A DNA stretch of 64,000 bases from an uncultured Gemmatimonadales bacterium (GTDB taxonomy: Bacteria; Gemmatimonadota; Gemmatimonadetes; Longimicrobiales; RSA9): assembly GCA_963783305.1 (NCBI GenBank), contig CAWAMW010000007.1:320001-384000 (forward strand), read 5' to 3'. Shown piece after piece: positions 400 through 22,891 of this stretch (its first letter is position 1; each line of letters opens with the position of its first letter). A program made the translations under genes and the position numbers. The notes below the pieces were generated by a model that was not told the DNA's origin, ran no database searches, and worked only from the letters and a program-made list of their open reading frames with translations.

Positions 400-538
400 C
401 CGGGCGAAAACGCCCGGAACGCCGCACGGTACCGCTCGAGCTCCACGCCGATTCGCGCGCCCGGATCTCCTCGTGGTGCGCGCCCAGCGCCCAGTACTCG
501 AGGAACAGCCGCGTATGCTCCGGCTGGTGCGACTGCCG
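400..538 (-). pseudogene. Relic of the C-terminal domain of a TetR-family regulator, frameshifted, with no HTH
   Basis: Reads HQPEHTRLFLEYWALGAHHEEIRAR, then after a 2-nt shift in a (GC)n run near 452-461 continues IGVELERYRAAFRAF; codon usage is coding-like. Confidence 0.55.
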
Positions 539-588
539 CGTCTGCGCCGCTTCGGTCCCGCTGGACGTGCGGTGGGACGTGCGCCCTC

Positions 589-640
589 TATTGACCAATT
601 GGAAAGTAAGTACTATGTTGAACTTTCCGAGTGGTCAATA
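589..640. promoter_or_regulatory. 19-bp inverted repeat pair (TetR-type operators) overlapping a sigma70-like promoter
   Basis: TATTGACCAATTGGAAAGT (589-607) matches the reverse complement of ACTTTCCGAGTGGTCAATA (622-640) at 17/19; TTGACC-N17-TATGTT lies at 591-619 on +. Confidence 0.7.
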
Positions 641-712
641 GGCCAGCACCGACCGCTCATCACCACTGGCGATCCGCGCCGGTCGGCTCCTCCCTCTCTG
701 AAGGGATCGCAC

Positions 713-3700
713 ATGAGGACCTCACGAGTGTCGCAGGACGCTTCGGTTGTTGGAGGCCGGGGGGCGACCTGGAGGCGGCCATCGCTGGTGGTGGGGATCG
801 GGGCATCGGCGGGGGGTCTGAAGGCGCTGCAGCAGTTCGTGGAGGCGGTGCCGGCGGACAGCGGGCTGGCGTTCGTGGTGATCCTGCACCTGGATCCGAC
901 GCGGGAGAGCCGGATGGCGGAGCTGCTCCAGGACCGGGCGGCGATCCCGGTGACGCAGGTGGTGGGGCCGACGAGGGTGGCCGCGGATCACATCTACATC
1001 ATTCCGCCGGGCCATGATCTGGCGATGATCGGGGACAGCGTGGTGCTGCGGGATCGCGGGGAGCGAGCGGATCACGCGCCGGTGGATCTCTTCTTCCGCA
1101 CGCTGGCGGAGGCGTTCGGCGCGGACGCGGTGGGGGTGGTGCTGTCGGGCACCGGCGGCGATGGAACGGCTGGAGTCCGCTACATCCGTGGTGCGGGCGG
1201 GATCACGGTGGCGCAGTCGCCGGAAGACGCCGAATACGATGCCATGCCGGTGAGTGCCATTGCTACGGGTCTGATCGACCTGGTGCTGCCGTGCGGGGGC
1301 ATGACGGGGGAGCTGATCCGCCTGAGCCGGAAGCAGTCGGGCGTTGGGAACGAGGCGTCGGGATCCCCGGAGACGGCGAGTGAGACGGACGCGGGGCTGG
1401 CGGCGATCTTCGCGGCGTTGAGGAGCCGCACGGGGCACGATTTCAGCCTGTACAAGCGATCAATGGTGCTGCGGCGCCTGGACCGGCGGCTTCGTTTCAA
1501 CAACGTGGACGCCCTGGCGGACTACGTTCCGCTGCTGGAATCGGATGCGCGGGAGGGTCAGGCGCTGCTGGGTGACTTCCTCATCTCGGTGAGCAGCTTC
1601 TTCCGTGACGGCGAGGAGTTCGAGGCGCTGGCCCGCCTGGTGCCCGCGCTGTTCGTGGGCAAGGAGCCGGGCGAGACCGTGCGGGTCTGGGTGGTGGGGT
1701 GCGCGACGGGGGAGGAAGTCTATTCGGTGGCGATGGTGCTGGCGGAGCATGCGGCGACGCTCCTCGATCCGCCGGAGCTTCAGATCTTTGCCACCGACAT
1801 CGACGAGAAGGGGTACGGGTGGGCCCGAGCGGGGCTCTACACGGCCGCGGCCGTGGCGAACGTGGAGCCCGAGCGGCTGCAGAAGTTCTTCACGAAGGAG
1901 CCGGGTGGGTACAGGATCGCAAAGTCGCTGCGGGAGCGGGTCCTTTTCGCGGGTCACAACGTCCTCCACGATCCGCCTTTCTCGCGCATCGACCTGATCA
2001 CCTGCCGGAACCTCTTCATATATCTGAGGCCGGAGGCGCAGGAGCGCGTGCTGGAGACGTTCCATTTCGCGTTGCGGCCTGGGGGGATGTTGTTTCTGGG
2101 CACGTCGGAGTCGGCGGCGGACTCGGGGTTGTTCGACAAGACCGATGGCGGCGCGAACCGGATCTACCTGCGGGGTGCCGCACCGAGGCGAGCGCCTCCG
2201 CGTGTTTCGGCGGCGGACCCGCAGCGGACCGGGGGGAGCCCGGTGACCTCGCCGGGGGGTGCGAAGGCGACGGGCGCGTCAGGGGAGCGGTTCTCGTATG
2301 GCGCGCTGCACCTCCGCATGCTGGAGGAGTATGCCCCGGCCAGCGTGATCGTCGACGAGCGGTTGAACGTGGTGCACCTGTCCGCGGGTGCCGGGCGGTT
2401 CCTCCACCTGCGGGCGGGGGAGCCGAGCCACAGCCTCCTGGGACTGGCTCGAGAGGATCTGCGGCGCGTCCTGCGCACGGCGCTGCACAGGGTCTTCAGG
2501 GACAGGGTGCCGATCACACGGCGGATCCAGATGGAGGTGGACGGAGCCCGGCGGCCGGTGACGGTGCGCATTCGTCCTTCTCCCGAGGACGGTGCAGCAG
2601 GCCGCTTCGCGCTGATCGTGTTCGAGGCCCACATCGGGTCGGTCGCCGCCCCGGTCAACGAGGCGGAGGGCGAGCCGGATCCGGCCGAGATCGAGTTGGA
2701 GGACGAGCTCCGGGTGATGCGGGATCTGCTGGAGTCGAGCAACCTGGAGCATGACCGGACGATGTCGGAGCTGCAGACGGTCAATGAAGAGATGCAGTCG
2801 GTGAACGAGGAGCAAAGGGCGGCGACCGAAGAGCTCGAGACCGGCCGGGAGGAGATCCAGTCCATCAATGAAGAACTGACCACGATCAACCAGGAACACC
2901 AGAGCACCATCGAGGAGCTGAAGCGGACGAACGCGGACCTTCAGAACCTGATCGAGTCGACCGAGATCGGTACGATCTTCCTGGACCGTTCGCTGCGCAT
3001 CCGGCGCTTCACTCCCATGGCGGCCGCACTCTTCAACTTCGTCGACGCGGACAGGGGTCGATCGCTCTCCGACATCACGCATCGCCTGCGCTACCATTCC
3101 CTGCAGAGCGATGTATCCGACGTGCTCGAGTCGCTGGATCCCATCGAGCGGGAGATGCAGAGTGAAACGGGGGACCCCTATATCGTCCGCATCAGGCCGT
3201 ACCGCTCCATGGACGGGGATTACGACGGCGTGGTCCTTACGTTTTTCGACAATACGGCGCAGCACGACGCGCGGGAGCGGCTGCGGAAGGCGACGCGAGT
3301 GGCCGAGGCGGCCAATATCGCGAAGGGGACCTTCCTGGCCACGATGTCCCATGAGTTCCGCACGCCGCTGAACGCCATCCTTGGCTACGCGGACCTGCTC
3401 CAGAGCCTCGGTCCCCTGAGCCAGGATCAGGAGATGAAGGTCGGCAGGATCAAGGCGGGGGCGTGGCATCTGGCGGCCATGATCGACGATATCCTGAGCT
3501 TCGCGAAGCTGGACGGAGGGTACGAGGAGGTGCACCCGGAGCCCATGGACGCGCGGCTGATCGCGCGGGAGGCCGGGGCGCTGGTGGAGCCGGCGGCGAC
3601 TGCGAAATCGCTGGCCTTCGTCGTGGACGTGCCCGACGAACCGCTGGAGCTGACCACGGACGTGGACAAGGCGCGACAGATCCTGGTCAACCTGTGTGGC

Positions 3701-4015
3701 AACGCGGTGAAGTATACGGATGAGGGCGAGATCCGGCTGGAGGTGCGGGCCGAAACGGGTGGCACGGCCGGCGCGCGCGGGGTGGACGGGGTGGCTTTCG
3801 TCGTACGCGATACGGGGGTGGGCATCGCGCCGGAGCATCATGAGCGGATCTTCGAGCGGTTCTGGCAGGTGGACGGCGCCTCCCCCCGGGCGGCGGGCGG
3901 CCTGGGGATCGGCCTCGCCGCGGCCCGGGAGTACGCCCGGCTGCTGGGGGGGGATGTGAGCGTGGAGAGCGTGCCAGGCGGGGGCAGCACCTTCCGGCTC
4001 TGGCTGCGCCGATGA
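713..4015 (+). CDS. CheB methylesterase/CheR methyltransferase/PAS/histidine kinase fusion
   Basis: CheB triad motifs GASAGG, ILHLD, GTGGDG; CheR motifs GCATGEE, ATDID, CRNLFIY; coiled coil; PAS; H-box MSHEFRTPL, N-box NAVKY, G-boxes DTGVGI and GLGIGL. Confidence 0.95.
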   Translation: MRTSRVSQDASVVGGRGATWRRPSLVVGIGASAGGLKALQQFVEAVPADSGLAFVVILHLDPTRESRMAELLQDRAAIPVTQVVGPTRVAADHIYIIPPGHDLAMIGDSVVLRDRGERADHAPVDLFFRTLAEAFGADAVGVVLSGTGGDGTAGVRYIRGAGGITVAQSPEDAEYDAMPVSAIATGLIDLVLPCGGMTGELIRLSRKQSGVGNEASGSPETASETDAGLAAIFAALRSRTGHDFSLYKRSMVLRRLDRRLRFNNVDALADYVPLLESDAREGQALLGDFLISVSSFFRDGEEFEALARLVPALFVGKEPGETVRVWVVGCATGEEVYSVAMVLAEHAATLLDPPELQIFATDIDEKGYGWARAGLYTAAAVANVEPERLQKFFTKEPGGYRIAKSLRERVLFAGHNVLHDPPFSRIDLITCRNLFIYLRPEAQERVLETFHFALRPGGMLFLGTSESAADSGLFDKTDGGANRIYLRGAAPRRAPPRVSAADPQRTGGSPVTSPGGAKATGASGERFSYGALHLRMLEEYAPASVIVDERLNVVHLSAGAGRFLHLRAGEPSHSLLGLAREDLRRVLRTALHRVFRDRVPITRRIQMEVDGARRPVTVRIRPSPEDGAAGRFALIVFEAHIGSVAAPVNEAEGEPDPAEIELEDELRVMRDLLESSNLEHDRTMSELQTVNEEMQSVNEEQRAATEELETGREEIQSINEELTTINQEHQSTIEELKRTNADLQNLIESTEIGTIFLDRSLRIRRFTPMAAALFNFVDADRGRSLSDITHRLRYHSLQSDVSDVLESLDPIEREMQSETGDPYIVRIRPYRSMDGDYDGVVLTFFDNTAQHDARERLRKATRVAEAANIAKGTFLATMSHEFRTPLNAILGYADLLQSLGPLSQDQEMKVGRIKAGAWHLAAMIDDILSFAKLDGGYEEVHPEPMDARLIAREAGALVEPAATAKSLAFVVDVPDEPLELTTDVDKARQILVNLCGNAVKYTDEGEIRLEVRAETGGTAGARGVDGVAFVVRDTGVGIAPEHHERIFERFWQVDGASPRAAGGLGIGLAAAREYARLLGGDVSVESVPGGGSTFRLWLRR

Positions 4016-5193
4016 CCGCTCCACAGGTGGCGGCGATGCCGGAGGTCATGGCCGGCGCCGCTCCCGCACGGGCGGAGATCCTGACTCAGGGAGGGAACCT
4101 GATCGTCGTGTTGGCTGGCGACTGGCGGCTGGAGGCGGAGGCGCCGCGGTTCGAGGAACTCCTGGACGCCGGACCCGCCGCGGGGGCGGCCGGCGGGACC
4201 ATCGCGGCCGTCCGCTTCGACAGCAGCGCGCTGGGGGCGTGGGACAGCAGCCTGCTGGTGTTCCTGCAGCATGCCCACGGGTACTGCGAAGCACGGGAGC
4301 TGGATCTCGATGACTCGGGGCTGCCCGAACCGATCACGAGACTGCTTGCCCTGTCCAGGGCGGTGCCGGAACGCGAGGCAGCGCCGGACCCGCCCCGGGT
4401 CTCTCGGCTCGCCCGGCTCGGGAATGCCGGCATCTCCGCGTGGGACTCGGGGCTGGACGCCGTCACGTTCACGGGCCAGGTGACGGACAGCGTGATCCGG
4501 CTGCTGCTGCGCCGGGTCCGGATGCGATGGCGTGACTTCTGGGTGGTGGTGCAGACGAACAGCTCGGGCGCGTTCCCCATCGTCACGCTCATCGCCATCC
4601 TCATCGGCGTGATCATCGCCTTCCTGGGTGTGGTGGTCCTGCGGCGGTTCGGCGCCGGGTACTACGTGTCGTATCTGGTCGGGTACGGCATCCTGCGGGA
4701 GATGGGCGCGCTGATGACCGGCATCATCATGGCGGGGCGGACGGGCGCCGCGTTCGCCGCCGAGCTGGGCAGCATGAAGATCACCGAGGAGATCGACGCG
4801 TACACAACCCTCGCCATCTCACCCATCGACCACCTGGTGCTCCCCCGCGTTCTCGGCCTCCTCGTGATGATGCCGCTGCTCGTGATCTACGCCGATTTCA
4901 TCGCCATTGGGGGCGGGATGCTCGTAGCCATCGGGCTCCTGGACCTGACGCCGACCCAGTTCGTGGGTGGTCTGCTGTCCGTGGTCACCCTCTCGGACGC
5001 CGTGCTCGGCGTCTTCAAGGGCGGCGTTTTCGGCCTCATCATTGGCCTTGCCGGATGCATGAAGGGACTCCAGACCGGCTCGGACGCCGGGGCGGTGGGT
5101 CGGTCGGCCACGTCGGCGGTGGTGCTGGGCATCACGCTGATCATCGTGGCCAACGCGCTGATCGACTGGCTCGCGGTCCTGGTACACGTATGA
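4012..5193 (+). CDS. mlaE: MlaE-family ABC permease with N-terminal STAS-like domain
   Basis: WDSS STAS-like N-terminus; REMGALMTGIIMAGRTGAAFAAELGSMKITEEIDA; ATGA overlap with the upstream gene. Confidence 0.92.
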   Translation: MTAPQVAAMPEVMAGAAPARAEILTQGGNLIVVLAGDWRLEAEAPRFEELLDAGPAAGAAGGTIAAVRFDSSALGAWDSSLLVFLQHAHGYCEARELDLDDSGLPEPITRLLALSRAVPEREAAPDPPRVSRLARLGNAGISAWDSGLDAVTFTGQVTDSVIRLLLRRVRMRWRDFWVVVQTNSSGAFPIVTLIAILIGVIIAFLGVVVLRRFGAGYYVSYLVGYGILREMGALMTGIIMAGRTGAAFAAELGSMKITEEIDAYTTLAISPIDHLVLPRVLGLLVMMPLLVIYADFIAIGGGMLVAIGLLDLTPTQFVGGLLSVVTLSDAVLGVFKGGVFGLIIGLAGCMKGLQTGSDAGAVGRSATSAVVLGITLIIVANALIDWLAVLVHV

Positions 5194-5987
5194 CCGCCGC
5201 CCAGCTCGCCGGCGCCGGGCGCGGGGCCCCCGGGCCGCCCACCATCGAGGTGAGCGATCTGATGATGATGTACGGGTCGCTCCTCATCATGAAGGAGCTG
5301 ACCTTCTCGGTCACCAAGGGTGAGGTCTTCGTCATCATGGGCGGGAGCGGGAGCGGGAAGAGCACGCTGTTGAAGCACCTGATCGGGCTCAAGGACCCGG
5401 CGCAGGGCAGGATCCTGTTCCACGGTGAGGATTTCGGCGGGGCGGCCCCGGAGGAGCGGAAACGAATGCTTCGCAGGATGGGCGTCCTCTACCAGAACGG
5501 CGCCCTTTGGGGCGGTCTCACCCTCGGGGAGAACGTGGCGCTGCCGCTGGAGGAGTTCACCGCGCTGGACGCCCGGGCCATCGGCGAGGTGGTGGCCCTG
5601 AAGCTGGCGCTGGTGGGGCTCAGCGGGTACGAGGAGTTCTATCCCGCGGCGATCAGTGGCGGGATGCGGAAGCGCGCGGCTCTGGCCCGGGCCATCGCGC
5701 TGGATCCGGAGGTGGTCTTCTTCGACGAGCCGTCGTCCGGCCTGGATCCCATCAGCGCCAGCCGGCTGGACGACCTGATCCTGGAGCTGAAGGCGAGCTT
5801 CGGCACCACCATCATCGTGGTGACCCACGACCTGGCCAGCATCTTCAGGATCGCCGACCGGGCGCTGTTCCTGGACATCGGAGCCAGGACCATGACGGCC
5901 CTCGGCAGCCCCGCAGAGCTGCGGGATGACCCGCCGAGCGAGCAGGTCCACCAGTTCCTCACCCGCAGCAGCGAAGGCGCATCATGA
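5190..5987 (+). CDS. mlaF: MlaF/Mkl-family ABC ATPase
   Basis: Walker A GGSGSGKS, signature ISGGMRKR, FFDEPSSGLDP, VTHD; ATG at 5190 overlaps the mlaE stop. Confidence 0.92.
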   Translation: MTAAQLAGAGRGAPGPPTIEVSDLMMMYGSLLIMKELTFSVTKGEVFVIMGGSGSGKSTLLKHLIGLKDPAQGRILFHGEDFGGAAPEERKRMLRRMGVLYQNGALWGGLTLGENVALPLEEFTALDARAIGEVVALKLALVGLSGYEEFYPAAISGGMRKRAALARAIALDPEVVFFDEPSSGLDPISASRLDDLILELKASFGTTIIVVTHDLASIFRIADRALFLDIGARTMTALGSPAELRDDPPSEQVHQFLTRSSEGAS

Positions 5988-6970
5988 GCATCCGCGCGAA
6001 TCCCACGGCCATCGGGTCGTTCCTGATCGGCGGCCTGGTCCTGCTGGTAGCGGGGACGGCGACGCTGGCGTCCACGGCCTGGTTCGACGAGAGGTCCACC
6101 TTCATCAGCTTCTTCGAGGAGTCGGTGAACGGCCTCGAGAATGGCGCCCCGGTGAAGTTCCAGGGCGTGCCCGTGGGGAATGTGACCGGGATGCGGATCC
6201 AGATCGACGAGCGCGACAAGACGTTCCAGGTCCCCGTGGAGTACGAGATCGACCTCACCCGCCTGAGGAACCAGACGGGGACCTTCGTCGACCTGGACGA
6301 AAGCGGCGTGCTGGAACGCCAGATCGCCGACGGCCTCCGCGCACAGCTGCAGATGGAGAGTATCGTCACCGGCCAGCTCTACATCGAGCTCAGCTACCGC
6401 ACCGACCCGGCGCCGCCGGAGCTGGAAGAGCGGCGCACCCCCTGGCCGGAGATTCCTACCTCGCCGTCCCTCCTGGCGGCGCTGGGCACCGGCGCGGGCA
6501 GCCTCGTGGCCGACATCCTCAGGGTGCTCTTCCAGGTCAATGAGATGCTGGCCGAAATCGACATGCCCCAGATCAACGAAGCCGTGATGGCGTCCGCGGA
6601 AGCGGTGGAAGGGCTGGTCGCGGGGCCGGAGCTCCAGGCAGCCCTCGAGCAGCTGCCGGGCCTGACGGCCCAGGCCAACCGGACCATGGAGGAGCTGGGA
6701 CGCCTCGCCGTGAACGCGGACGCCGCCATCGCGCCGATCCAGCTCCAGCTGGAGGGGACGGCCACGGAGCTGACGGCCACCCTCGAGGTCATGCGCAGGA
6801 CGCTGGAGGAGACGCACGGTCTGCTATCCACCGACTCCGGGCTCGGCTACGAGCTCCAGGAGACGCTGACCAGCCTCAGGGAAGCCGCGGACGCGCTCAA
6901 CCTGCTCGTCACCTCCCTCGAGCAGAACCCCGACATGCTGTTGCGCGGCCGGAAGCCGCCGGAGAACTGA
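5984..6970 (+). CDS. mlaD: MlaD/MCE-domain (PqiB-like) protein
   Basis: N-terminal TM, SVNGLENGAPVKFQGVPVGNV, coiled-coil C-terminus ending LEQNPDMLLRG. Confidence 0.9.
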   Translation: MSIRANPTAIGSFLIGGLVLLVAGTATLASTAWFDERSTFISFFEESVNGLENGAPVKFQGVPVGNVTGMRIQIDERDKTFQVPVEYEIDLTRLRNQTGTFVDLDESGVLERQIADGLRAQLQMESIVTGQLYIELSYRTDPAPPELEERRTPWPEIPTSPSLLAALGTGAGSLVADILRVLFQVNEMLAEIDMPQINEAVMASAEAVEGLVAGPELQAALEQLPGLTAQANRTMEELGRLAVNADAAIAPIQLQLEGTATELTATLEVMRRTLEETHGLLSTDSGLGYELQETLTSLREAADALNLLVTSLEQNPDMLLRGRKPPEN

Positions 6971-6972
6971 TC

Positions 6973-7686
6973 ATGAACTGGAACGTGGCACGAAGCGCAT
7001 CTCTCGCGGTCCTCGGGGTGCTGATCCTGGCCATGATGCCGGGGTGCTTCAGCCTGGGGCGTACCTCCCCAACGGTGGAGCAGTACGTGATCGGGGGAGC
7101 CGAGCCGGCCGCCGCGGTGGGGCCCGTTCCCGGGGTCGACGGTGTGGCGGTGGGCCTGCGGGGGATCGATCTCGCCCCCTACCTCGCGACGCGCGCCATC
7201 GTGGTGCGGCGCGGGAGCCATGAGGTCGTGACGTCCGACTACCACCGGTGGGGCGAGGACCTCGCCGAGGGCATCAACCGGGCACTCGCCCGGCACCTGG
7301 CCGCGACGGAGTCGTTCCGTGCGGTGGATGTGGCGCCGTGGCCGGTTCGTACGTCGTACGACTACGTGGTCCGGATCCACATCACACGGTTCGAGGGCGT
7401 GGTGCCCGGGGCGACGTCTCCGACGGCGGGAGCGGCTGCCGGAGCAGGGGAGGGAGCGTCCCACGTGGGCGCCTCGTGGGAGATCATCCGGCAGCAGGAC
7501 GGGACGGTGCTCGCCCGCGGAGCTACGGAGCACGTGGAGGAGGGCTGGGTGGTAGGTGATTACGCAGCCCTCGTCGCCCTCCTGGATGAGGGGCTGGCCG
7601 TGCTGGCCCGTGAGGTGACGGCAGCCATTCGGGGGCTGGCGGTGAAGGCGGCGGACGCCAGCCGGACCGGCGCTGACCGGCGATGA
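6973..7686 (+). CDS. PqiC-family ABC transport auxiliary lipoprotein
   Basis: Lipobox MPGC; LAPYL..., YHRWGEDL motif; position downstream of the MCE gene. Confidence 0.85.
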   Translation: MNWNVARSASLAVLGVLILAMMPGCFSLGRTSPTVEQYVIGGAEPAAAVGPVPGVDGVAVGLRGIDLAPYLATRAIVVRRGSHEVVTSDYHRWGEDLAEGINRALARHLAATESFRAVDVAPWPVRTSYDYVVRIHITRFEGVVPGATSPTAGAAAGAGEGASHVGASWEIIRQQDGTVLARGATEHVEEGWVVGDYAALVALLDEGLAVLAREVTAAIRGLAVKAADASRTGADRR

Positions 7687-8944: not shown

Positions 8945-9010
8945 CTCCTGCTGGCGGGGTGCGCCCTGAGACGGGTGAGACTCTGAGAGCCCATGACAGG
9001 AGAGGATTTC

Positions 9011-9589
9011 ATGACGTCGGGAACAGTGGTCGGAGCCGTGGCGGTGGCGATGATCCTCGGTGCGTGCGATGGACGGGGCGACGTGCCGACGCCGAAGGAC
9101 GATGTGCCCGTGCCCACGGAGGAAACGGCGCGTGGAGAAGGGGTGGCGCCGCCGTCCGGGAATCGGCCCGACGCGGGGTCGGGTCGGGGCATGCCCATGA
9201 GTGGCGGCATGGGGGAGATGCAGGGGCGGATGATGGGCGGCGGATCGCCGGAAGACGCGCCGGAGGCAAATGCCGCGGAGGCCAGCACCGCCGGCTGTCC
9301 GGACGTGACCCAGGAGCTCGCCGATCGCGGGCGGGAGGTCTACGCCGGGGCCGGCAACTGCTTCACGTGTCACGGCGGGGACGCCGCAGGCTCACCGCTG
9401 GCGCCGGACCTGACGGACGGGGAATGGCTCAACGTGGACGGGACCTACGGATCCATTCTCGCGGTGGTCCGGGAGGGAGTGGCCCAGCCGCAGCAGTTCC
9501 CCGCGCCCATGCCGGCGATGGGAGGCGCGAACCTGTCCGAGAATCAGCTCTGTGCCGTGGCAGCCTACGTCTATTCTCTGAGCCACTGA
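9011..9589 (+). CDS. Monoheme cytochrome c lipoprotein with Met-rich linker
   Basis: Lipobox LGAC; GMPMSGGMGEMQGRMMGG linker; CFTCH; APDLTDGEW; axial Met in PMPAMGG. Confidence 0.9.
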   Translation: MTSGTVVGAVAVAMILGACDGRGDVPTPKDDVPVPTEETARGEGVAPPSGNRPDAGSGRGMPMSGGMGEMQGRMMGGGSPEDAPEANAAEASTAGCPDVTQELADRGREVYAGAGNCFTCHGGDAAGSPLAPDLTDGEWLNVDGTYGSILAVVREGVAQPQQFPAPMPAMGGANLSENQLCAVAAYVYSLSH

Positions 9590-9701
9590 AACGGAGTCGC
9601 CCCGCGCCCACGGCAGCCCCCGCGCCGCCCGCTCGAGGACATCAGCTCGGCGGAGACGCGGCTCCGTGCACGCGACTCGCCGTGCAAGGGGTGAAGACCG
9701 C

Positions 9702-9734
9702 TTAATCCGAAGTTCATCCGGAACTCACGCGGTG
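9702..9734 (+). promoter_or_regulatory. 11-bp-period direct repeats, candidate OmpR/PhoB-family response regulator site
   Basis: TTAATCCGAAG / TTCATCCGGAA / CTCACGCGGTG, about 60 nt upstream of the Ig-lipoprotein start. Confidence 0.45.
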
Positions 9735-9795
9735 GACGCTAGACTACAGTCGGCAACCAACGGGTCGGTCCTTTTGTAAAGGTGGAGTTGAGATG

Positions 9796-10767
9796 ATGAC
9801 AGGACGAACGGGGAGGATGCTCACGCTGATGGGCGCCGTGGCGGTGGGTATGGGGGCCTGCGACGACACGACAACGATCGAGCCGGAGACCACGCTGCTG
9901 AGCGTGGCGCCCGCTGCGGGGGCCGTGGACGTGGCGACCGACGCACCGATCGAGGTGACGTTCGACCGGCCGATGGGCGATCACGCGACCGACTACGCGG
10001 ACCTTCACCGCGGGGACGTGAACGGCCCCATGGTGGGAGGCGAGTGGAGCATGCAGTCGGGTGGAATGACTCTGCACTTCACGCCCCACGAGCCGCTGGA
10101 GCCGGGCACCGAATACACGCTGCACCTGGGCGGCGGGATGATGGATGCCGACGGGCATCCCGCGGATATGGAGAGCCACGGCACGTCCATGGGCGGCATG
10201 TGGGCCGATGGTGGGATGATGTCCGGCGGCATGGGCTCGCACATGGGCAATGGCTGGCAGGACAAGAACGGCAGCTATGGAATGGTCTTCAGCTTCACGA
10301 CGGCCGGGACGGCAGCGACCGCGCTGGTGGCGGTGGCGCCGCAGGGCGGGGATACCGGGGTGGACCCGACGGCACCGGTCGTCGTGACGTTCAACCACGC
10401 CATCGATCCGGCCATGGCCGAGTACGCGGCGCTGCATGAGGGCGATGTGACGGGTCCGGAAGTGCCCGGGACATGGACGCTCTCCGAGGACTCGACGCAG
10501 CTCATCTTCACGCAGGATGAGCCGCTCAAGGCGGGGACCCGGTACACCATCCACCTGGGCGGAGGGATGATGGACGCCGAGGGGCACCACGTGGACATGG
10601 ATGAAAACGGCACCCACATGGGCGGCGAGTGGGCCACCGGCTCCATGATGGGCGGGGGCATGAGCGGCGGCATGAGCGGCGGCGAGCACAACCACATGGG
10701 GCAGGGGTGGGAGCATCCTGACAATGGCAGCTACGGGATGATCTTCACCTTCACGACTGCGGCATAG
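9796..10767 (+). CDS. Lipoprotein with two tandem Ig-like (Big_5-type) domains, each with a Met/His/Gly-rich segment
   Basis: Lipobox MGAC; two repeats of about 145 aa (V.P..G...V....PI.VTF...; F.P.EPL..GT.YT.HLGGGMMDA.GH; NGSYGM.F.FTTA). Confidence 0.85.
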   Translation: MTGRTGRMLTLMGAVAVGMGACDDTTTIEPETTLLSVAPAAGAVDVATDAPIEVTFDRPMGDHATDYADLHRGDVNGPMVGGEWSMQSGGMTLHFTPHEPLEPGTEYTLHLGGGMMDADGHPADMESHGTSMGGMWADGGMMSGGMGSHMGNGWQDKNGSYGMVFSFTTAGTAATALVAVAPQGGDTGVDPTAPVVVTFNHAIDPAMAEYAALHEGDVTGPEVPGTWTLSEDSTQLIFTQDEPLKAGTRYTIHLGGGMMDAEGHHVDMDENGTHMGGEWATGSMMGGGMSGGMSGGEHNHMGQGWEHPDNGSYGMIFTFTTAA

Positions 10768-10874: not shown

Positions 10875-11759
10875 ATGGCAAGTCTCCCGCCCGATCCGTC
10901 CATACCAGACGGTCCGTGGACGCCATCCTCTCCCCGTCCATGGGACGTCGCGCGCCACTACGATGAGCTCGACTCCTACTACCGCGACCTCTGGGGTGAG
11001 CACGTGCACCACGGCTTCTGGCGACGCGGCGCCCGGTCGCTGCCGGAGGCCACAGATGACCTTATCCGCCAGGTGGTCGACCGCGGGGGCATCCCGGATG
11101 GAGCGGTCGTCTGCGACGTGGGATCCGGCTACGGGGCAACGGCGCGGTTCCTCGCCCGCGAGATGGACGCCCGCGTCACGGCCGTCACCATCTCCGCCGT
11201 CCAGCACGCGGCCGCCCTGGCCGCCCCGCGCGTCGCGCCGGCCCCGGACTACCGCCTGGGCGACTTCATCGAGAGCGCCCTTCCCACCGCTTCCTTCGAT
11301 GCGGCCATCGCCGTGGAGTCGCTGTCCCACATGCCGGACCTCCCCGCCACGCTCCGGGAGGTCCGAAGAATTCTGCGCCCCGGCGCCCCCTTTGTCGCCT
11401 GCGTCTGGCTCGCCGGCGACCACGTCTCAGGATGGCGAACGCGCCACCTCCTGGAGCCGATCCGCCGGGAGGGCCGTCTCGCCCGGCTGTGCTCCGCGGA
11501 CGAGCTGGAGGCGGAGCTCCGCGCCGCCGGCTTCCGTACCGAGAGCTTCGACGATATCTCCGGGGATGTGAGACGGACCTGGAGCGTCGTCGTCGGCAGG
11601 GTCCTCGGGCGGCTGGCTCGGGACCGGGAGGCGCGGCGGGTAGTCGCGGCCGGCGGAGAGGCCGTCTTCGCCCGAACGGTCGCCAGGATCTGGCTGGCCT
11701 ACCGGGTCAACGCCATGCGATACGGCGTCTTCACAGCACGCTGCCCTGGTGCCCCCTGA
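10875..11759 (+). CDS. Class I SAM-dependent methyltransferase (tocopherol/sterol methyltransferase-like)
   Basis: HYD...LWGEHVHHGFW, CDVGSGYG, FDAAIAVESLSHMPD, LRPG. Confidence 0.88.
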   Translation: MASLPPDPSIPDGPWTPSSPRPWDVARHYDELDSYYRDLWGEHVHHGFWRRGARSLPEATDDLIRQVVDRGGIPDGAVVCDVGSGYGATARFLAREMDARVTAVTISAVQHAAALAAPRVAPAPDYRLGDFIESALPTASFDAAIAVESLSHMPDLPATLREVRRILRPGAPFVACVWLAGDHVSGWRTRHLLEPIRREGRLARLCSADELEAELRAAGFRTESFDDISGDVRRTWSVVVGRVLGRLARDREARRVVAAGGEAVFARTVARIWLAYRVNAMRYGVFTARCPGAP

Positions 11760-12471
11760 CACGGATGGCCGTGCCGCCGTCACGTTTGGCACGCAGCACG
11801 ACCGCGCCGAGCGCGAGTAGACCCGTGAGCAGCATGACCCACGTGGAGGGCTCGGGCACCGTCGCGGTGGCCGCAGTGAAGTTCGCCTCGAAGTGGAGGT
11901 CCGGGCCCTCGTAACTCGCCCACGGGCTGGTGGTCCAGTCGGCCGTGTTCTCACCGTTGTTCAGGAAGACACTGGTCCCGCCGCCGTACTCGTCGCTCGT
12001 CGCGGTCTCCCACTGAATTCGTCCCGTGCCGGAGAGACCCGATGTGCTCAGGAAGAGCGCGTAGACGTTCCCGGGAACGACCGACAGTCCGCCGGTTCCG
12101 AACGCGTACTCCGTGAAAGGGGTGGAAGGCGTCGCGTCGTGGGTGAACACGCCGCTCGTGTAAAGGGCCGGACCGGCCGCCATCGAGCCGTTCCATGCGT
12201 ACACGTACGCCATGAACGAGAGACTCGGCGTGGACGGCTCCGGGAAGTTCGTGGAGGTCCGTCCGAGCCAGAACGAGAAGCTATTGAGGATGTTGTCGGT
12301 GGGTGCCGTGATCGTCTGCCCGTAGGTCTGCGTGTTCGGCTTCCCCCAGGACTGGATTATGCCGCCACCGCCGGCTCCGATCGTCGTCTGGGCGGCTGCG
12401 GGGGTCACGACGGCAACGGCCAGCGCGGTCACCAGGGAGAAGAGCCTTCGTGATCTCGACGGGGAGTTCAT
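11731..12471 (-). CDS. PEP-CTERM sorting-domain surface protein
   Basis: Signal peptide ending AAAQ, Thr/Ser/Gly-rich body, VPEPSTWVMLLTGLLALGAVVLRAKR; GGAGG RBS before the ATG at 12471. Confidence 0.9.
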   Translation of the reverse strand: MNSPSRSRRLFSLVTALAVAVVTPAAAQTTIGAGGGGIIQSWGKPNTQTYGQTITAPTDNILNSFSFWLGRTSTNFPEPSTPSLSFMAYVYAWNGSMAAGPALYTSGVFTHDATPSTPFTEYAFGTGGLSVVPGNVYALFLSTSGLSGTGRIQWETATSDEYGGGTSVFLNNGENTADWTTSPWASYEGPDLHFEANFTAATATVPEPSTWVMLLTGLLALGAVVLRAKRDGGTAIRVRGHQGSVL

Positions 12472-12661
12472 GGGAGCCTCGGAATTGGGAGGGATGTCAG
12501 CGAAGCAACTTGTTACTATACGCAGGATCCACGCCCGGTGGTCTGTGTGGGAGCAGGACGTCGTGGAGTGGACGCGCAAGTTCGCCATGGCGTGGCCGGC
12601 TCCGGAGCGACGTACCACAAGCCTCGCGCGGTCGCGGGATCGGCCGGTCGCCGGCAATCCG

Positions 12662-12677
12662 GGGCGCAATCCTTGCT
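12662..12677 (+). promoter_or_regulatory. sigma54-like promoter upstream of the small protein at 12741
   Basis: GGGCGCAATCCTTGCT, GG-N10-GC with TTGC. Confidence 0.55.
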
Positions 12678-12740
12678 CGCCGTTTGTCCACGGGCGGTCG
12701 TCGCGCCGCACCGCTCCTCCCTCGTATCGGAGAGTCCGCC

Positions 12741-15328: not shown

Positions 15329-15901
15329 GTGGCTGAGTCCGGTGGCGGACTCTCGGTTGAGCAGCGGGCCCAGCTCCAGGCGGGTCGGGCGCGGCTGGGG
15401 CCGATCGAGCGCGCTGTCCGGTGGTCCACGCTCACTTTCTGGAGTCTCGGCGTCTTCGGCGCGCTGAGCGTGCTCTGGGGGCTGGTGTCAGGAGCCGGTG
15501 GCGTCGTGATGGGTGCGGTGCTGCTGGCGGTGGCCTGGAACGAGCGACGGGGGCGGGATCGGCTCCGGTCGCTCGACCCGCAGGGAGCCCGGATCCTGGG
15601 CTGGAACCAGGTGGTGCTGGCCGGCGTGCTCACCGTCTACCTGGGATGGACCATCGTGCGGGCCCGGACCGCACCGAGCCCGTCCGTCCGGGAGCTCGAG
15701 CAGCTGGTGGGGATGGATCCGGGGCTGGTGGCGGAGCTCACCACCACGGCCTACGGCGCGGTGATCGTAATCGTGGATATCGTCCAGGCGGCCATGGCCC
15801 GGTTCCATTTCCGGCGCGAGGGGCTGGCCGAGGCCCTCCGGCGGGAAGCGCCTGAATGGGTGCTCGAGGTCCTGGGTGCGTCCGGCTCCGCGGCGGGCTA
15901 G
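15329..15901 (+). CDS. Hypothetical membrane protein (about 4 TM)
   Basis: Hydrophobic segments and coding-like GC3; start uncertain. Confidence 0.65.
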   Translation: MAESGGGLSVEQRAQLQAGRARLGPIERAVRWSTLTFWSLGVFGALSVLWGLVSGAGGVVMGAVLLAVAWNERRGRDRLRSLDPQGARILGWNQVVLAGVLTVYLGWTIVRARTAPSPSVRELEQLVGMDPGLVAELTTTAYGAVIVIVDIVQAAMARFHFRREGLAEALRREAPEWVLEVLGASGSAAG

Positions 15902-16746
15902 CGGGGCGCCCGGACCCACCCCTTTGCGAGAAGGTCCCAGACGCCGAGAGCGCCGAGGAGCGCCAGGTTCGGGAAGAGCAGGGGGGCGAAGAGGGGCGGG
16001 CCGTAGATGACGCGCTCCCGGAGGGTGCCCCCCTCTTCCGTGATGGTGGGGTTGAGGTGCAGGAGGAATCCCACTACACCGGTGATGGCGGCCAGGGCAA
16101 GGATGCCGAGCGCCAGCTTGAGGTAGAGCGCCGGCGTGCGCAGGAATATCGGTATGATCAGCCAACCGACCGTGACCGCCGCCACGGCCACGGGCACCCA
16201 CTCGGTGGCGTAGAAGAACCCGTTCTGGGCGTGGTCGACGAGGGAGAGGACGAAGTTGCCGGTAAAGCCGCCCCAGGCGAGGAAGACGACCCACTGTCCC
16301 CACTCGAGGTGATCCGGCGGTGCGAGCCGGTTGAGGAGGAGGAGTAGACCGAGGCCGGTGAAGGCGAGGGGCGCCACGAAGGGGGCGGAGTAGACCAGCG
16401 AACGGAGCGTCATGACCTGGAAGAAGCTGCTCTCGAGGTGGAGCACGAGCCCGGACACGCCCACCAGGATCGCCGCGCCGCCCACCCCCATCCCCACCCA
16501 GAACCCGCCGCGCTCCTGGAACGAGCGGCCCGAGTCCCGCACCGGCCGACCGAGCACGAGGTTGGCGAAGACCGCTACGGCCCCCGCCACCGTGAAGACC
16601 ACCGGAATCCACTCCGCGAACTCGGCAAACTCGTTGACCGAGTGCGCCACCCAGATGTCGAGGACCAGGAACGACAGGTTCACGCCGATGAACAGCTCCA
16701 GGAGAAACGACCGGGAGCGGATCAGGTCGCGCCAGTGGCGGCGCAT
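15898..16746 (-). CDS. 8-TM membrane protein with internal duplication and 2 conserved His per repeat (putative heme-b partner of the octaheme cytochrome)
   Basis: Repeat 1 AHSVNEF/EWIP/GLVLH/YSAPFVAPL; repeat 2 DHAQNGF/EWVP/GFLLH/YGPPLFAPL; TGATG overlap with the upstream gene. Confidence 0.8.
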   Translation of the reverse strand: MRRHWRDLIRSRSFLLELFIGVNLSFLVLDIWVAHSVNEFAEFAEWIPVVFTVAGAVAVFANLVLGRPVRDSGRSFQERGGFWVGMGVGGAAILVGVSGLVLHLESSFFQVMTLRSLVYSAPFVAPLAFTGLGLLLLLNRLAPPDHLEWGQWVVFLAWGGFTGNFVLSLVDHAQNGFFYATEWVPVAVAAVTVGWLIIPIFLRTPALYLKLALGILALAAITGVVGFLLHLNPTITEEGGTLRERVIYGPPLFAPLLFPNLALLGALGVWDLLAKGWVRAPR

Positions 16747-18068
16747 CAGGAGCCCTCCCCGTCCGCCTCCCCCGTCGGCTGGGTGGTGAGCGGCGCAGCC
16801 GGGCTCGGTGTGGCCCCGGTGCCCGCGCGGTGCCCGGGCGCCCGTAGCTCTGCCGCCGCCTCCTTCAGCTCCACCAGCTTGTACAGGAGCTCGTAGTTGC
16901 CGTGCCACTGGACGAGGTCCGCGCCGCCCATGAATGCGCCGTGCTTCGTCGTGCGGCCGAAGTAGTGCCAGAAGTCGAAATAGGTGAACTCAATGGTTTC
17001 GTCGTAGGGCTCCGGCGTCAGCAGACCCTCGTCCCGGAGCCCCTGCATGATCGCCTGCGCCTCGCGCACTTTCTCGTTGGTGGCGACCACCACCTCCTCC
17101 GCACGCTCGTAGAACGATTCGGTGTGGCCCTCCGTATGGCAGTTCATGCACATGGACTTCATCTCCTGCTGCCCCTGCAGGTAGGTGGGCCGCTTCTCAC
17201 TCACCGCGGCGAAGAGCCAGTAGCTCAGCCGCTCCGTCACGTCGTGGGTAGGACTGAGACCCTCCAGCCCGCTCATGTGGCACGTGCTGCACGTAGGAAC
17301 CGGCATGTCCTCCACCGTCAGCTCCATGGGCTTCGCGGCCAGGTTCATCTCGTCTCCCTGGATCGCGAACAGGACCCCGTGCTTCGACTCCTCGTAGATC
17401 TCGATCTGCGAGTGGTCCGGACCCATGTGGCACTGCCCGCACGTTCGCGGCGTCCGCGCCAGCTCCACCGAGGCCATGTGCCGGGAGTGACACGCCGTGC
17501 ACGTCCCGATGCTCCCGTCGGGGTTCGGCCGCCCGATGGAGTGACACGCTTCACACCCGCTCGCGATGGCCGCCTCTCCCTCCAGAATCGCCAGGTCGTT
17601 CGGCGCACGGTCCACGGCGCCCGGGTGGAACTGTTCGGCAAAGGCCACCTGCTCGTCCGTGAACGGCTCCGGCCCCCGCACCGCCGCGAACGCCGGCGCC
17701 GCATGCCGGCTGCGCAGGAACTCACGGTACTGCGTCGCGTGACACTGATCGCAGTTCAGCGCTGTCACGCCACTCGTGATCATGAAGCCCCGGTGCTCCG
17801 TCCCCACCTGATCGCCCACCGGCTGATGACAATCCAGGCACGTCGTACCCACCTTCGCGTGCTGGCTCCGCTCGTACTCCGCCACGATGGCCGGTGTCTC
17901 GTCACGGTGGCACGAGGCGCACTTCCCCGACGCCCGCACCAGCTCAGCCGTCGGTTGAGCCACTTCCACATTCGGACGTCTGGAGTGGATCAGGAAGGCC
18001 GCCAGCAGGAGAGCCGTGGCCAGCAGGACCGCCGCAAAGATGGATCGAAAGAGTGTCATCTGCCTCAT
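16746..18068 (-). CDS. Octaheme cytochrome c of the hydroxylamine oxidoreductase (HAO) family
   Basis: Eight CxxCH motifs (CASCH, CLDCH, CDQCH, CEACH, CTACH, CGQCH, CSTCH, CMNCH); HAO-family motif CGQCHMGPDHSQIEIYEESKHG; N-terminal hydrophobic anchor. Confidence 0.92.
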   Translation of the reverse strand: MRQMTLFRSIFAAVLLATALLLAAFLIHSRRPNVEVAQPTAELVRASGKCASCHRDETPAIVAEYERSQHAKVGTTCLDCHQPVGDQVGTEHRGFMITSGVTALNCDQCHATQYREFLRSRHAAPAFAAVRGPEPFTDEQVAFAEQFHPGAVDRAPNDLAILEGEAAIASGCEACHSIGRPNPDGSIGTCTACHSRHMASVELARTPRTCGQCHMGPDHSQIEIYEESKHGVLFAIQGDEMNLAAKPMELTVEDMPVPTCSTCHMSGLEGLSPTHDVTERLSYWLFAAVSEKRPTYLQGQQEMKSMCMNCHTEGHTESFYERAEEVVVATNEKVREAQAIMQGLRDEGLLTPEPYDETIEFTYFDFWHYFGRTTKHGAFMGGADLVQWHGNYELLYKLVELKEAAAELRAPGHRAGTGATPSPAAPLTTQPTGEADGEGS

Positions 18069-18103
18069 CGCATCGATTGGTGTTGAACCCGTTGAGGGCC
18101 GCC

Positions 18104-18119
18104 TGCACACCTGATACCA
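18104..18119 (-). promoter_or_regulatory. sigma54-like promoter of the octaheme operon
   Basis: Minus strand TGGTATCAGGTGTGCA, GG-N10-GC, about 35 nt before the ATG. Confidence 0.55.
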
Positions 18120-20962: not shown

Positions 20963-22891
20963 TCAGCGCGAGGCGTCGGGCAGCGGCCGGGTCAGGCTCT
21001 CCTGCGCCTCCCGGCGTTCCAGCAGCTCCGCCGTGAGGGGGAGGAGGTCCCGCTCGCTGAGAATTCCTACGAGCTTCCCGCCCTCGAGCACTGGCAGGCA
21101 GGAGAGGGAGTGCTCGCGCATGAGACGGATGGCGGCGGTCACGGGGGTGTCGGCGGGCATGGTCCGCGGGTTTCGCGTCATGATGTCCCGGATGGGGATC
21201 GCCTGCAGCTCGTCCAGGCGTCGGGTCCTGAGGAGGCGTAGGACGGCGCGATACGAGAGAATGCCGACGAGCTCCAGGTCCTGGTTCTCCACCAGGATCT
21301 GGCGGGTGCGCTCCCGGTCCATCATGAAGAGCGCCAGGTCCAGCGACTCGTCTTCCTGGAGGGTGAACAACCGGCTGGTCATGTACTGGTCGACCGTGGG
21401 GCCGATGGCGCCCGCCCACTCCTCGATCCGGGCCAGACCCCATTCGTGGACCGGCCGCCCGGTCTTCTGCCGGGCGATCAGCCCGGAGGTGAGGGCGGCG
21501 CAGCGCTCGGGGCGAGTGGCCGCCCCGGCCATGGCCGCAGCCGATTCCTCGAGCCAGCGGGAGCCGGTCCGGTTGCGGTGGACCCGCTGGTCGATGATGT
21601 GGAGGTAGCGGTCGGCCTCGTCGGGGTCCACACCGAGGGACCGGAGGCCGTCCCCGGCCAGCGGAATGAGTCGCTCGCGGATGAGAGCGCGAGCAGGGAT
21701 GCTCTCGCCGTCGATCCAGGCAAAGCCAGCATCGAGCCCCCGTCGGGCCGCGGCGAAGAAGTTGGCGCGGGCGTCGCTGAAGGCGAGCCGGTCGGCCAGG
21801 TCCGGGTAGTGGTCGGGACCGGCGACGACCAGGCCGAGCCAGAAGGCGGCATTGGCGATCTCGTCCACGACCGTGGGCCCCGCCGGGAGAGCACGGGATT
21901 CGATCCGGAGGTGGGGCCGTCCATCGATGACGCCGTAGCAGGGGCGGTTCCAGCGGTAGACGGTGCCGTTGTGGAGCTGGAGGCAGTGGAGCCCGGGGAT
22001 GCCGCCGGAGTCCAGAACGGCGAGGGAGTCCTCGCCCGGTTCGCGGGTGACGAGGGGTCGGAACCGGGTGATGTCCTCCTGGAAGAGCTCGACCACCGAC
22101 TCGCGCACCCACGCATCGCCGAAGCGGACACGGGGGGTGATCTCCCGCAGCGCCGGGGACGCCACGCGGGTGTCCATGGTCTGGCGGAAGACGGCGATGC
22201 GTGTCTCGGCCCAGAGCCGCTTGCCGAAGAGGAAGGGGGAGTTGGTGGCGGCGGCGAGGACGGGGGCGATCATCGCCTGGGCGGCGTTGTAGGCGCCGGC
22301 GAACTCCCGGGCGCCCACCTGGAGGTGGACCTGGAAGCTGGTGTTGCACGCCTCCAGCATCATGGAATCGTGCTCGATGCGGAGTTCGTCGGTGCCGGTG
22401 ATATGGAGGTGGAGGCGTCCGCCGGCGAGCCGCATGGTGGCGTCGTTGAGGGACCTGTAGCGGTCGCGCGGCGTCATGTTGGCGAGGGTCAGGTCGCGCT
22501 GGGCGAGGCAGGGAAGGATCCCGGTCATCGCCACGTCGGCGCCGAACCGCGCGGCGACCCGCTCCACGTCGGCGACCCGGCGGCCCAATTCGGCCTCCAT
22601 GGTGGAGAGCAGGCCGGGACCGGCCCGCACGGGCGGGAGGTTCACCTCGAGGTTGAAGCGCGCCAGCTCAGTGGTGACCCGGTCGTCGTGGATCTGGTCC
22701 AGGACCTCCATGGCGACGGGTGCGGGGCGGCGGCGAGCATCGACCAGCACCAGCTCCTGCTCCGCACCCACCCGGCGGACTCCCTCCTCGAGGAGCCCTT
22801 CCGCCAGGATCCGCTCGAGAGCGCGCAGGTCCTGGAGGAGTCCCCGCGTGAACGCGGCGGTGGAGCGGGACTCCTGAGGTGACTGTATCAT
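20963..22891 (-). CDS. Glutamate--cysteine ligase (GCS2) family protein with C-terminal CBS pair
   Basis: VGAEQEL, TELARFNLE, EACNTSFQVH, NSPFLFG, HNGTVYRWNRPCY, LRIESR; CBS motifs IMTRNP and LVGILSERD. Confidence 0.9.
   Translation of the reverse strand: MIQSPQESRSTAAFTRGLLQDLRALERILAEGLLEEGVRRVGAEQELVLVDARRRPAPVAMEVLDQIHDDRVTTELARFNLEVNLPPVRAGPGLLSTMEAELGRRVADVERVAARFGADVAMTGILPCLAQRDLTLANMTPRDRYRSLNDATMRLAGGRLHLHITGTDELRIEHDSMMLEACNTSFQVHLQVGAREFAGAYNAAQAMIAPVLAAATNSPFLFGKRLWAETRIAVFRQTMDTRVASPALREITPRVRFGDAWVRESVVELFQEDITRFRPLVTREPGEDSLAVLDSGGIPGLHCLQLHNGTVYRWNRPCYGVIDGRPHLRIESRALPAGPTVVDEIANAAFWLGLVVAGPDHYPDLADRLAFSDARANFFAAARRGLDAGFAWIDGESIPARALIRERLIPLAGDGLRSLGVDPDEADRYLHIIDQRVHRNRTGSRWLEESAAAMAGAATRPERCAALTSGLIARQKTGRPVHEWGLARIEEWAGAIGPTVDQYMTSRLFTLQEDESLDLALFMMDRERTRQILVENQDLELVGILSYRAVLRLLRTRRLDELQAIPIRDIMTRNPRTMPADTPVTAAIRLMREHSLSCLPVLEGGKLVGILSERDLLPLTAELLERREAQESLTRPLPDASR

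Follow-up and report, generated by a model that had tools for sequence, protein, structure and literature searches.

In the sections of PMC3701875 that deal with it, the reverse-HURM module of Nautilia profundicola comprises a Tyr-less HaoA and a NapC/NrfH-type cytochrome, cM552, and is proposed to carry out quinol-fed nitrite reduction without NrfA. PMC8042395, from which the definition of the HAO family and the role of its Tyr cross-link are taken, describes Kustc0458/0457 (HAOr) of Kuenenia stuttgartiensis, where a Tyr-less octaheme reduces nitrite to nitric oxide (NO). We examined a two-gene locus in which an octaheme cytochrome c of the HAO family is joined to a membrane protein of another kind. 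The locus lies on the minus strand of a stretch of 64,000 nucleotides (positions 320,001 to 384,000, forward strand, of contig CAWAMW010000007.1, assembly GCA_963783305.1, from an uncultured Gemmatimonadales bacterium); this whole stretch is the window, and coordinates are counted from its first letter. On balance we favor the reading that the membrane protein is a new heme-b quinol-dehydrogenase subunit serving a reductive octaheme.

Results

The octaheme protein and its membrane partner

The upstream gene encodes a protein with eight CxxCH motifs, the HAO motif CGQCHMGPDHSQIEIYEESKHG and a single N-terminal hydrophobic helix, and the claim of the first-pass annotation for a membrane-anchored octaheme of about 440 amino acids (aa) was borne out by the sequence and by its match to PF13447 (E 2e-29; 102.9 bits, cut-off 21.9). 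All eight matches of a PDB search were HAO-family proteins, with IhOCC of Ignicoccus hospitalis (4QO5) first. The octaheme belongs to the HAO family; against the hydrazine dehydrogenase (HDH) model it scored 85 bits, the cut-off being 900. Two start codons are available, ATG 18068 (440 aa) and ATG 18059 (437 aa); the latter fits the 45–46 residue lead seen in most homologues, and residues are numbered from it. The F..VF...R-P pattern at the N-terminus recurs in homologues, and the helix is predicted to be an uncleaved anchor. The heme motifs, D215-H216 (following the sixth CxxCH), M377 and W385 were invariant in the alignment of 48 homologues (48/48). The GPDH of the octaheme aligned to GVDH of Nitrosomonas HAO, whose distal Asp-His pair has a catalytic role. 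The residue opposite W385 was F in IhOCC and, in a weak alignment, W in the Tyr-less Kustc0458.

The octaheme stop codon (TGA, 16748–16746) shares base 16746 with the ATG of the membrane gene, forming the TGATG overlap that had been reported earlier. The two halves of the membrane protein are 29% identical over 105 aa (E 4e-9, pairwise blastp), and an AlphaFold2 model (mean pLDDT 91.5) gave eight long helices in two units, in full agreement with the earlier description of two similar four-helix transmembrane units with shared motifs. These lie, in unit 1 and unit 2 respectively, at H35/H172, E45-W-x-P/E182-W-x-P, H103/H230 and Y119/Y248. The four histidines were conserved in 120/120 close homologues, as the first-pass annotation would have them; N23, D30, G96, G99, D171 and E182 were likewise invariant there, as were two P-x-x-A-P motifs. 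Among 25 homologues with identities down to 28%, three of the histidines were invariant and H35 was conserved in at least 90%. The invariant G96 and G99 are one and two turns below H103.

Two histidines per unit had been claimed, and this stands; they are not, however, spread through the membrane, since all four sit at the ends of helices 1, 3, 5 and 7 on one shared face that is poor in Lys and Arg (K/R). The loops after the His helices carry on average 0.35, 1.2, 0.02 and 1.4 K+R, versus 3.1, 3.8, 1.5 and 2.2 on the opposite face. By the positive-inside rule, all four histidines are therefore likely on the periplasmic side, which is also the expected location of the octaheme.

The membrane protein gave no Pfam or NCBIfam family above cut-off, no PDB relative and no match to NapC, and it has no CxxCH. 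A search with 66 unit sequences returned no consistent curated family, b-type cytochromes included. At least 1227 homologues were found, the few named ones being called "hypothetical"; a protein atlas held only unnamed clusters for the whole protein and no named match for unit 2, and no description of the family was found in the open-access literature (PMC, bioRxiv). The octaheme adds a member to a known family, and the membrane protein falls in no curated family. Foldseek gave no match at E≤0.001. With VIA-align, using the whole protein or one unit, the matches were generic helical bundles of the four-helix up-down type, and b-type cytochromes were absent among the best 50 matches listed, which does not exclude that fold. 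A complex prediction for the octaheme, the membrane protein and two hemes scored 0.01 against a mark of 0.32 and is evidence neither way. No fusion of the membrane protein was found among proteins of 540–2000 aa, which is weak evidence; judged by eye, the longer matches P0267 and P0202 resemble frameshifted read-throughs of both genes, and P0122 is a homologue with an unrelated C-terminal extension. Shorter matches (30–134 aa) cover parts of the protein at 37–69% and may be cut fragments.

Co-inheritance of the two genes

The octaheme and membrane genes are tightly co-inherited. The GTDB search confirmed 541 loci for the membrane partner; in the best 80, an octaheme gene stood directly upstream in 79, the remaining locus having just 2 bases upstream. 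The 80 loci belong to at least 11 phylum-level groups (27/80 are from Poribacteria), and GTDB is estimated to hold about 1300 matching stretches. In the reverse direction, a search for the octaheme in 603 genomes of three phyla gave 20 loci at E<1e-100, all with the partner adjacent (7, 6 and 7 per phylum); these include three seed genomes and the unpublished genome G479, the count being 19/19 once G479 is set aside, and the partner in G510 looks frameshifted. Beside the weaker octaheme matches (E 8e-84 and above) no match to the partner was present. No statistic is given for co-occurrence because the loci include kin and are not independent; likewise, kinship confounds the correlation of pairwise identities between the two proteins (Spearman 0.44, 89 loci), which is not used as support. 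The expected synteny of the membrane family with redox enzymes was found for the close homologues and failed for some of the more distant ones, which have no redox neighbor.

Within the 80 loci no third gene recurred beyond close kin (related Poribacteria), and neither a second multiheme gene (c554/cM552) nor a regulator recurred beside the pair. The distribution is patchy, with the pair in about 2–5% of the sampled genomes. The sole other genome of the same genus lacks it; the octaheme found there is of a sister clade and is accompanied by a NapC/NrfH-like protein (L148).

Sister octahemes and the wider membrane family

The main argument for the function of the membrane protein comes from what sister octahemes carry in the same gene slot. 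We compared 13 hand-picked second-tier sister octahemes (36–43% identity; L149 was left unassigned). Seven of the 13 lie in a gene run with a quinol-reacting type of protein, namely a cytochrome b (L144, L147, L150 and L153, with a Rieske gene confirmed in two), an NrfD protein (L146 and L151) or the NapC/NrfH-like protein of L148; since these subunits hold the slot beside the sisters, the membrane protein is proposed to do the same job. A further three adjoin a quinol-type NO reductase (L142, L143 and L145; two scanned, one assigned by likeness). NapA-like genes were found near 3/13 (L144, L147, L161), and the octaheme of L152 has Rrf2-like and RIC-like neighbors. As to gene order at the NO reductase loci, the octaheme is downstream of the reductase and of a short cupin-like gene in L142, L143 and L145; an Rrf2 regulator is upstream in L143 and L145, and L142 has a tandem pair of octahemes.

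A profile search revealed three branches of the membrane family besides the octaheme branch. Both histidines were kept in 245/245 unit domains from the four branches; these domains were chosen by profile match, at least 2 loci entered twice, and L125, L128 and L129 were excluded together with repeat fetches of places already covered. In one branch the gene for a two-unit protein immediately precedes those for gluconate 2-dehydrogenase subunit 3 and a GMC flavoprotein, an arrangement seen in 3 genome loci and in 5/5 plasmid loci fetched (of 19 matches). The 5 plasmid loci were checked for CxxCH in the partner proteins, which lacked it; by eye, the partners have no signal peptide. The idea of a quinol-reacting subunit gains support from the existence of this dehydrogenase branch together with the quinol-reacting subunits of the sister octahemes. 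The GMC-branch loci (L087, L088, L132, L111–L115) have a thiamine-diphosphate enzyme upstream and often an enolase-like gene, and the operon occurs in cultured Nitrobacter, Bradyrhizobium, Methylocystis and Komagataeibacter.

The two other branches are described here for their gene order; how they bear on function is considered in the Discussion. Single-unit proteins form, with a helix-hairpin-helix (HhH) protein that apparently has a signal peptide, an unannotated two-gene module common in the host's phylum (L089–L110, L122, L133–L136, L140, L141, L164, L165). The two-unit proteins of L154 (4200–5204), L155 (5125–6186) and L156 have all four histidines and lie beside outer-membrane beta-barrel-like genes, with a CDF transporter following one of them.

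Host genome

The host genome is 96% complete. NirK, RpoN and MenD scored over their cut-offs; a NapA-like gene with iron-sulfur (FeS) and NrfD-type neighbors was below its family cut-off, and an untyped gene of the heme-copper/NO-reductase family is present. Searches of this genome for NrfA, Hcp and NosZ found none of them, the sole NrfA match being the octaheme itself. The AmoA search gave no match in the host, nor in any control genome. The neighbors of the NapA-like gene (L168; G000:C17:487000–498000) encode a protein with eight CxxCH, an FeS protein and a protein of the DsrP/NrfD type. The host genome (G000) is rich in multiheme proteins (contigs C2, C15, C16 and C17), several of these with 11–17 CxxCH.

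Upstream region and other genes of the window

A sigma54-like box had been reported before the pair; such a site is present (Table 1), and its role as a functional promoter was not upheld. It matches 7/10 consensus letters, a score equalled in 594 of 4000 (15%) random 153-bp windows of the genome, and the scores at the two closest loci were 5 and 4. A stricter pattern fitted to the site is uncommon in the genome, with 127 matches, and was found upstream in 0/71 relatives. The site was accordingly rejected as a conserved element, being at chance level by one score and not kept in the closest loci. An FNR/CRP-like pattern was found upstream in only 2/73 loci.

Table 1. Features of the two-gene locus, in window coordinates
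Feature	Position	Strand	Basis
282-aa membrane protein, two 4-helix units	15898..16746	-	sequence, AlphaFold2, homologue alignment
TGATG stop/start overlap joining octaheme and membrane genes	16744..16748	-	sequence
Octaheme cytochrome c, HAO family, membrane-anchored	16746..18068	-	8 CxxCH, PF13447, PDB matches
Octaheme N-terminal hydrophobic helix followed by conserved R-P; predicted membrane anchor	17973..18050 (limits approximate)	-	sequence, homologues
sigma54-like GG-N10-GC site, not counted as functional	18104..18119	-	pattern match

Elsewhere in the window, a convergent 190-aa hydrophobic open reading frame (ORF) without family match (15329–15901) overlaps the membrane gene by 4 bases at the stops. 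At 8993–10767 a monoheme cytochrome c precedes a lipoprotein-like protein, possibly copper-related, in which two Ig-like (Big_5) domains occur along with stretches rich in Met and His. The ORF at 11731–12711, with a start probably near 12470, has a PEP-CTERM-like sorting motif at its C-terminus. A glutamate-cysteine ligase family 2 domain is fused to two CBS domains at 20963–22891, and an ordinary run at 473–7686 has a CheB/CheR-PAS histidine kinase and then an MlaE/ABC/MlaD transporter operon.

Discussion

In the arrangement that we infer (its topology, bis-His heme, quinol site, direct contact, reductive direction and substrate), each four-helix unit of the membrane protein would bind a single heme b through two histidines close to the outer face; in the simplest reading helices 1 and 3 of the unit, which run parallel, would hold the bis-His heme between them. 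The two hemes, if bound, would both be near the outer face and not across the membrane. Menaquinol would be oxidized near this face through the bis-His heme b, with the conserved D30, E45, D171 and E182 beside the histidines as candidate quinol-site residues, and electrons would pass by direct contact to the membrane-anchored octaheme, which would reduce nitrite, NO or hydroxylamine in the periplasm. Because all the histidines are on one face, the quinol step would move no charge across the membrane; the quinol step of NrfH/NapC likewise moves none. The role of the pair may be nitrite ammonification, or detoxification of NO or hydroxylamine, in a host without NrfA or Hcp.

If the proposal is true, the membrane cytochromes that react with quinol gain a new family, and the two genes make up a nitrite, NO or hydroxylamine reductase, which marker-gene surveys would miss or misread as nitrification. 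The pair sits in abundant uncultured lineages, and it would be a minimal testable case of what HAO-family proteins outside the nitrifiers and anammox bacteria do, and of how the respiratory chain connects to them, matters raised in the relevant sections of PMC9213671.

A number of observations weigh against this proposal, and the alternatives draw upon them. The conserved Asp and Glu near the histidines would fit a non-heme metal site too, and the best fold match was a soluble Bacillus metalloprotein (3D19; Z 16.2, root-mean-square deviation 3.6, 239 aligned, 5% identity), with copper-storage bundles also among the matches. The membrane protein might then bind a non-heme metal or handle heme, acting as an assembly, maturation or anchoring factor and not as an electron conduit; the clustering of the invariant N23, D30, E45, D171 and E182 with the histidines agrees with this, and histidines and Trp at the outer face are reminiscent of heme-handling proteins. 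We nonetheless think it unlikely, since the partners in the GMC branch have no c-heme motif to mature, quinol-reacting subunits fill the slot beside sister octahemes, and the fold scores are near the level that helical arrangement alone gives. The direction of the chemistry is a separate matter. The alignment to Nitrosomonas HAO ends short of the region of the Tyr-heme cross-link (P460), whose Tyr would stand at about the position of W385; for this reason the octaheme is likely, and not proven, to be of the reductive type. Moreover Y389 is invariant and Y366 near-invariant, and no nitrogen-cycle gene recurs beside the pair in the 80 loci. In the part of PMC9213671 concerned, HAO-family proteins beyond the characterized clade lack assigned functions and sulfur substrates are proposed for other members, a sulfur role being put forward for one. 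The wiring to the quinone pool could thus be kept with a different chemistry, the octaheme oxidizing its substrate and reducing quinone, or using a sulfur compound; the GMC branch would presumably run towards quinone reduction. This we regard as quite improbable, given that W385 aligns to non-Tyr residues of IhOCC and, weakly, Kustc0458, that Tyr-less HAOs reduce nitrite (PMC8042395), and that sister octahemes neighbor Nap, NO reductase, Rrf2 and RIC-like genes.

The other branches of the membrane family raise a further difficulty. Single-unit homologues (about 150 aa) keep both histidines, yet in 30/31 loci they pair with an HhH protein, which is non-redox (the tally excludes four weaker matches without a locus), and no redox gene was seen near the three two-unit homologues from the phylum of G302. 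Both branches count against a purely redox role of the fold, and because of them the His pair by itself does not imply quinol chemistry. They could instead point to a fold of general use in sensing or carrying heme or metal, which here would sense or move the substrate or product of the octaheme; one two-unit homologue does precede a CDF transporter. To this we give very little weight: no signaling domain is attached and no fused form of 540–2000 aa was found (weak evidence), no regulator recurs beside the pair, and the polar residues are gathered at one face, not lining a path through the membrane.

For the GMC branch, the loops on the His face carry 4.5 and 4.0 K/R versus 2.4 on the other face, where the octaheme branch has 1.8 and 1.5 versus 4.8 and 2.4. 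The His face thus seems to lie on whichever side the partner enzyme is and to be flipped inward in the GMC branch, a comparison made on a charge count of 8 partly related sequences; at L113, one of the GMC loci, a gene for a c-type cytochrome lies upstream in the same orientation. Taking the quinol-dehydrogenase reading further, we put forward a broader view tentatively, and would not be surprised to see it fail: the two-His unit may define an undescribed superfamily of quinone-reacting b-type cytochromes, an adaptor that was duplicated and recruited twice, outward to supply an octaheme N-oxide reductase with quinol electrons (at least 11 phyla) and inward to accept electrons from cytoplasmic GMC flavoproteins. 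The pair would then allow Poribacteria, Gemmatimonadota, Acidobacteriota and Planctomycetota to reduce nitrite or NO without NrfA, by a route that has been overlooked.

Comparison with known systems

Among solved octahemes IhOCC is the best match (E 2.7e-34 with a single sequence, 5e-52 with a profile), and its alignment extends through the C-terminal G-x-x-M-x-G-x-D region; it differs in having 521 aa, and D-P-D where the present octaheme has G-P-D-H. We know of no partner of this membrane family for IhOCC. Kustc0458 (PDB 6H5L) matches at E 5e-18, but works in the anammoxosome with a diheme c cytochrome, whereas the partner here is a polytopic membrane protein.

The b-type cytochromes (cytochrome b/b6, b561, NarI/FdnI) place their heme sites on a four-helix bundle, with His ligands and nearby Gly. 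The histidines on helices 1 and 3 of the membrane protein, again with Gly nearby, resemble such sites, and in sister octaheme loci the corresponding gene slot is taken by a cytochrome b or NrfD. Neither, however, has a sequence match to the membrane protein, and b-type cytochromes have four His across the membrane, in contrast to the two His on one face of each bundle, and the duplicated bundle, seen here. In gluconate and fructose dehydrogenases a flavoprotein and a small subunit are linked to quinone by a triheme cytochrome c anchor. A distant branch of the membrane family likewise directly precedes subunit 3 and a GMC flavoprotein; no triheme cytochrome c subunit is annotated at that position, and by eye the partners lack a signal peptide.

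The reverse-HURM/epsilon-Hao system is like the pair in that quinol-fed nitrite reduction by an octaheme without NrfA is proposed for it. Its quinol-side partner is a tetraheme c cytochrome, whereas the partner here has eight helices and no CxxCH; Hcp is a further component in Nautilia, and the search of the present host genome did not find it. The pair would work like a reverse-HURM module and yet is no member of that group, because its partner is not a NapC/NrfH cytochrome.

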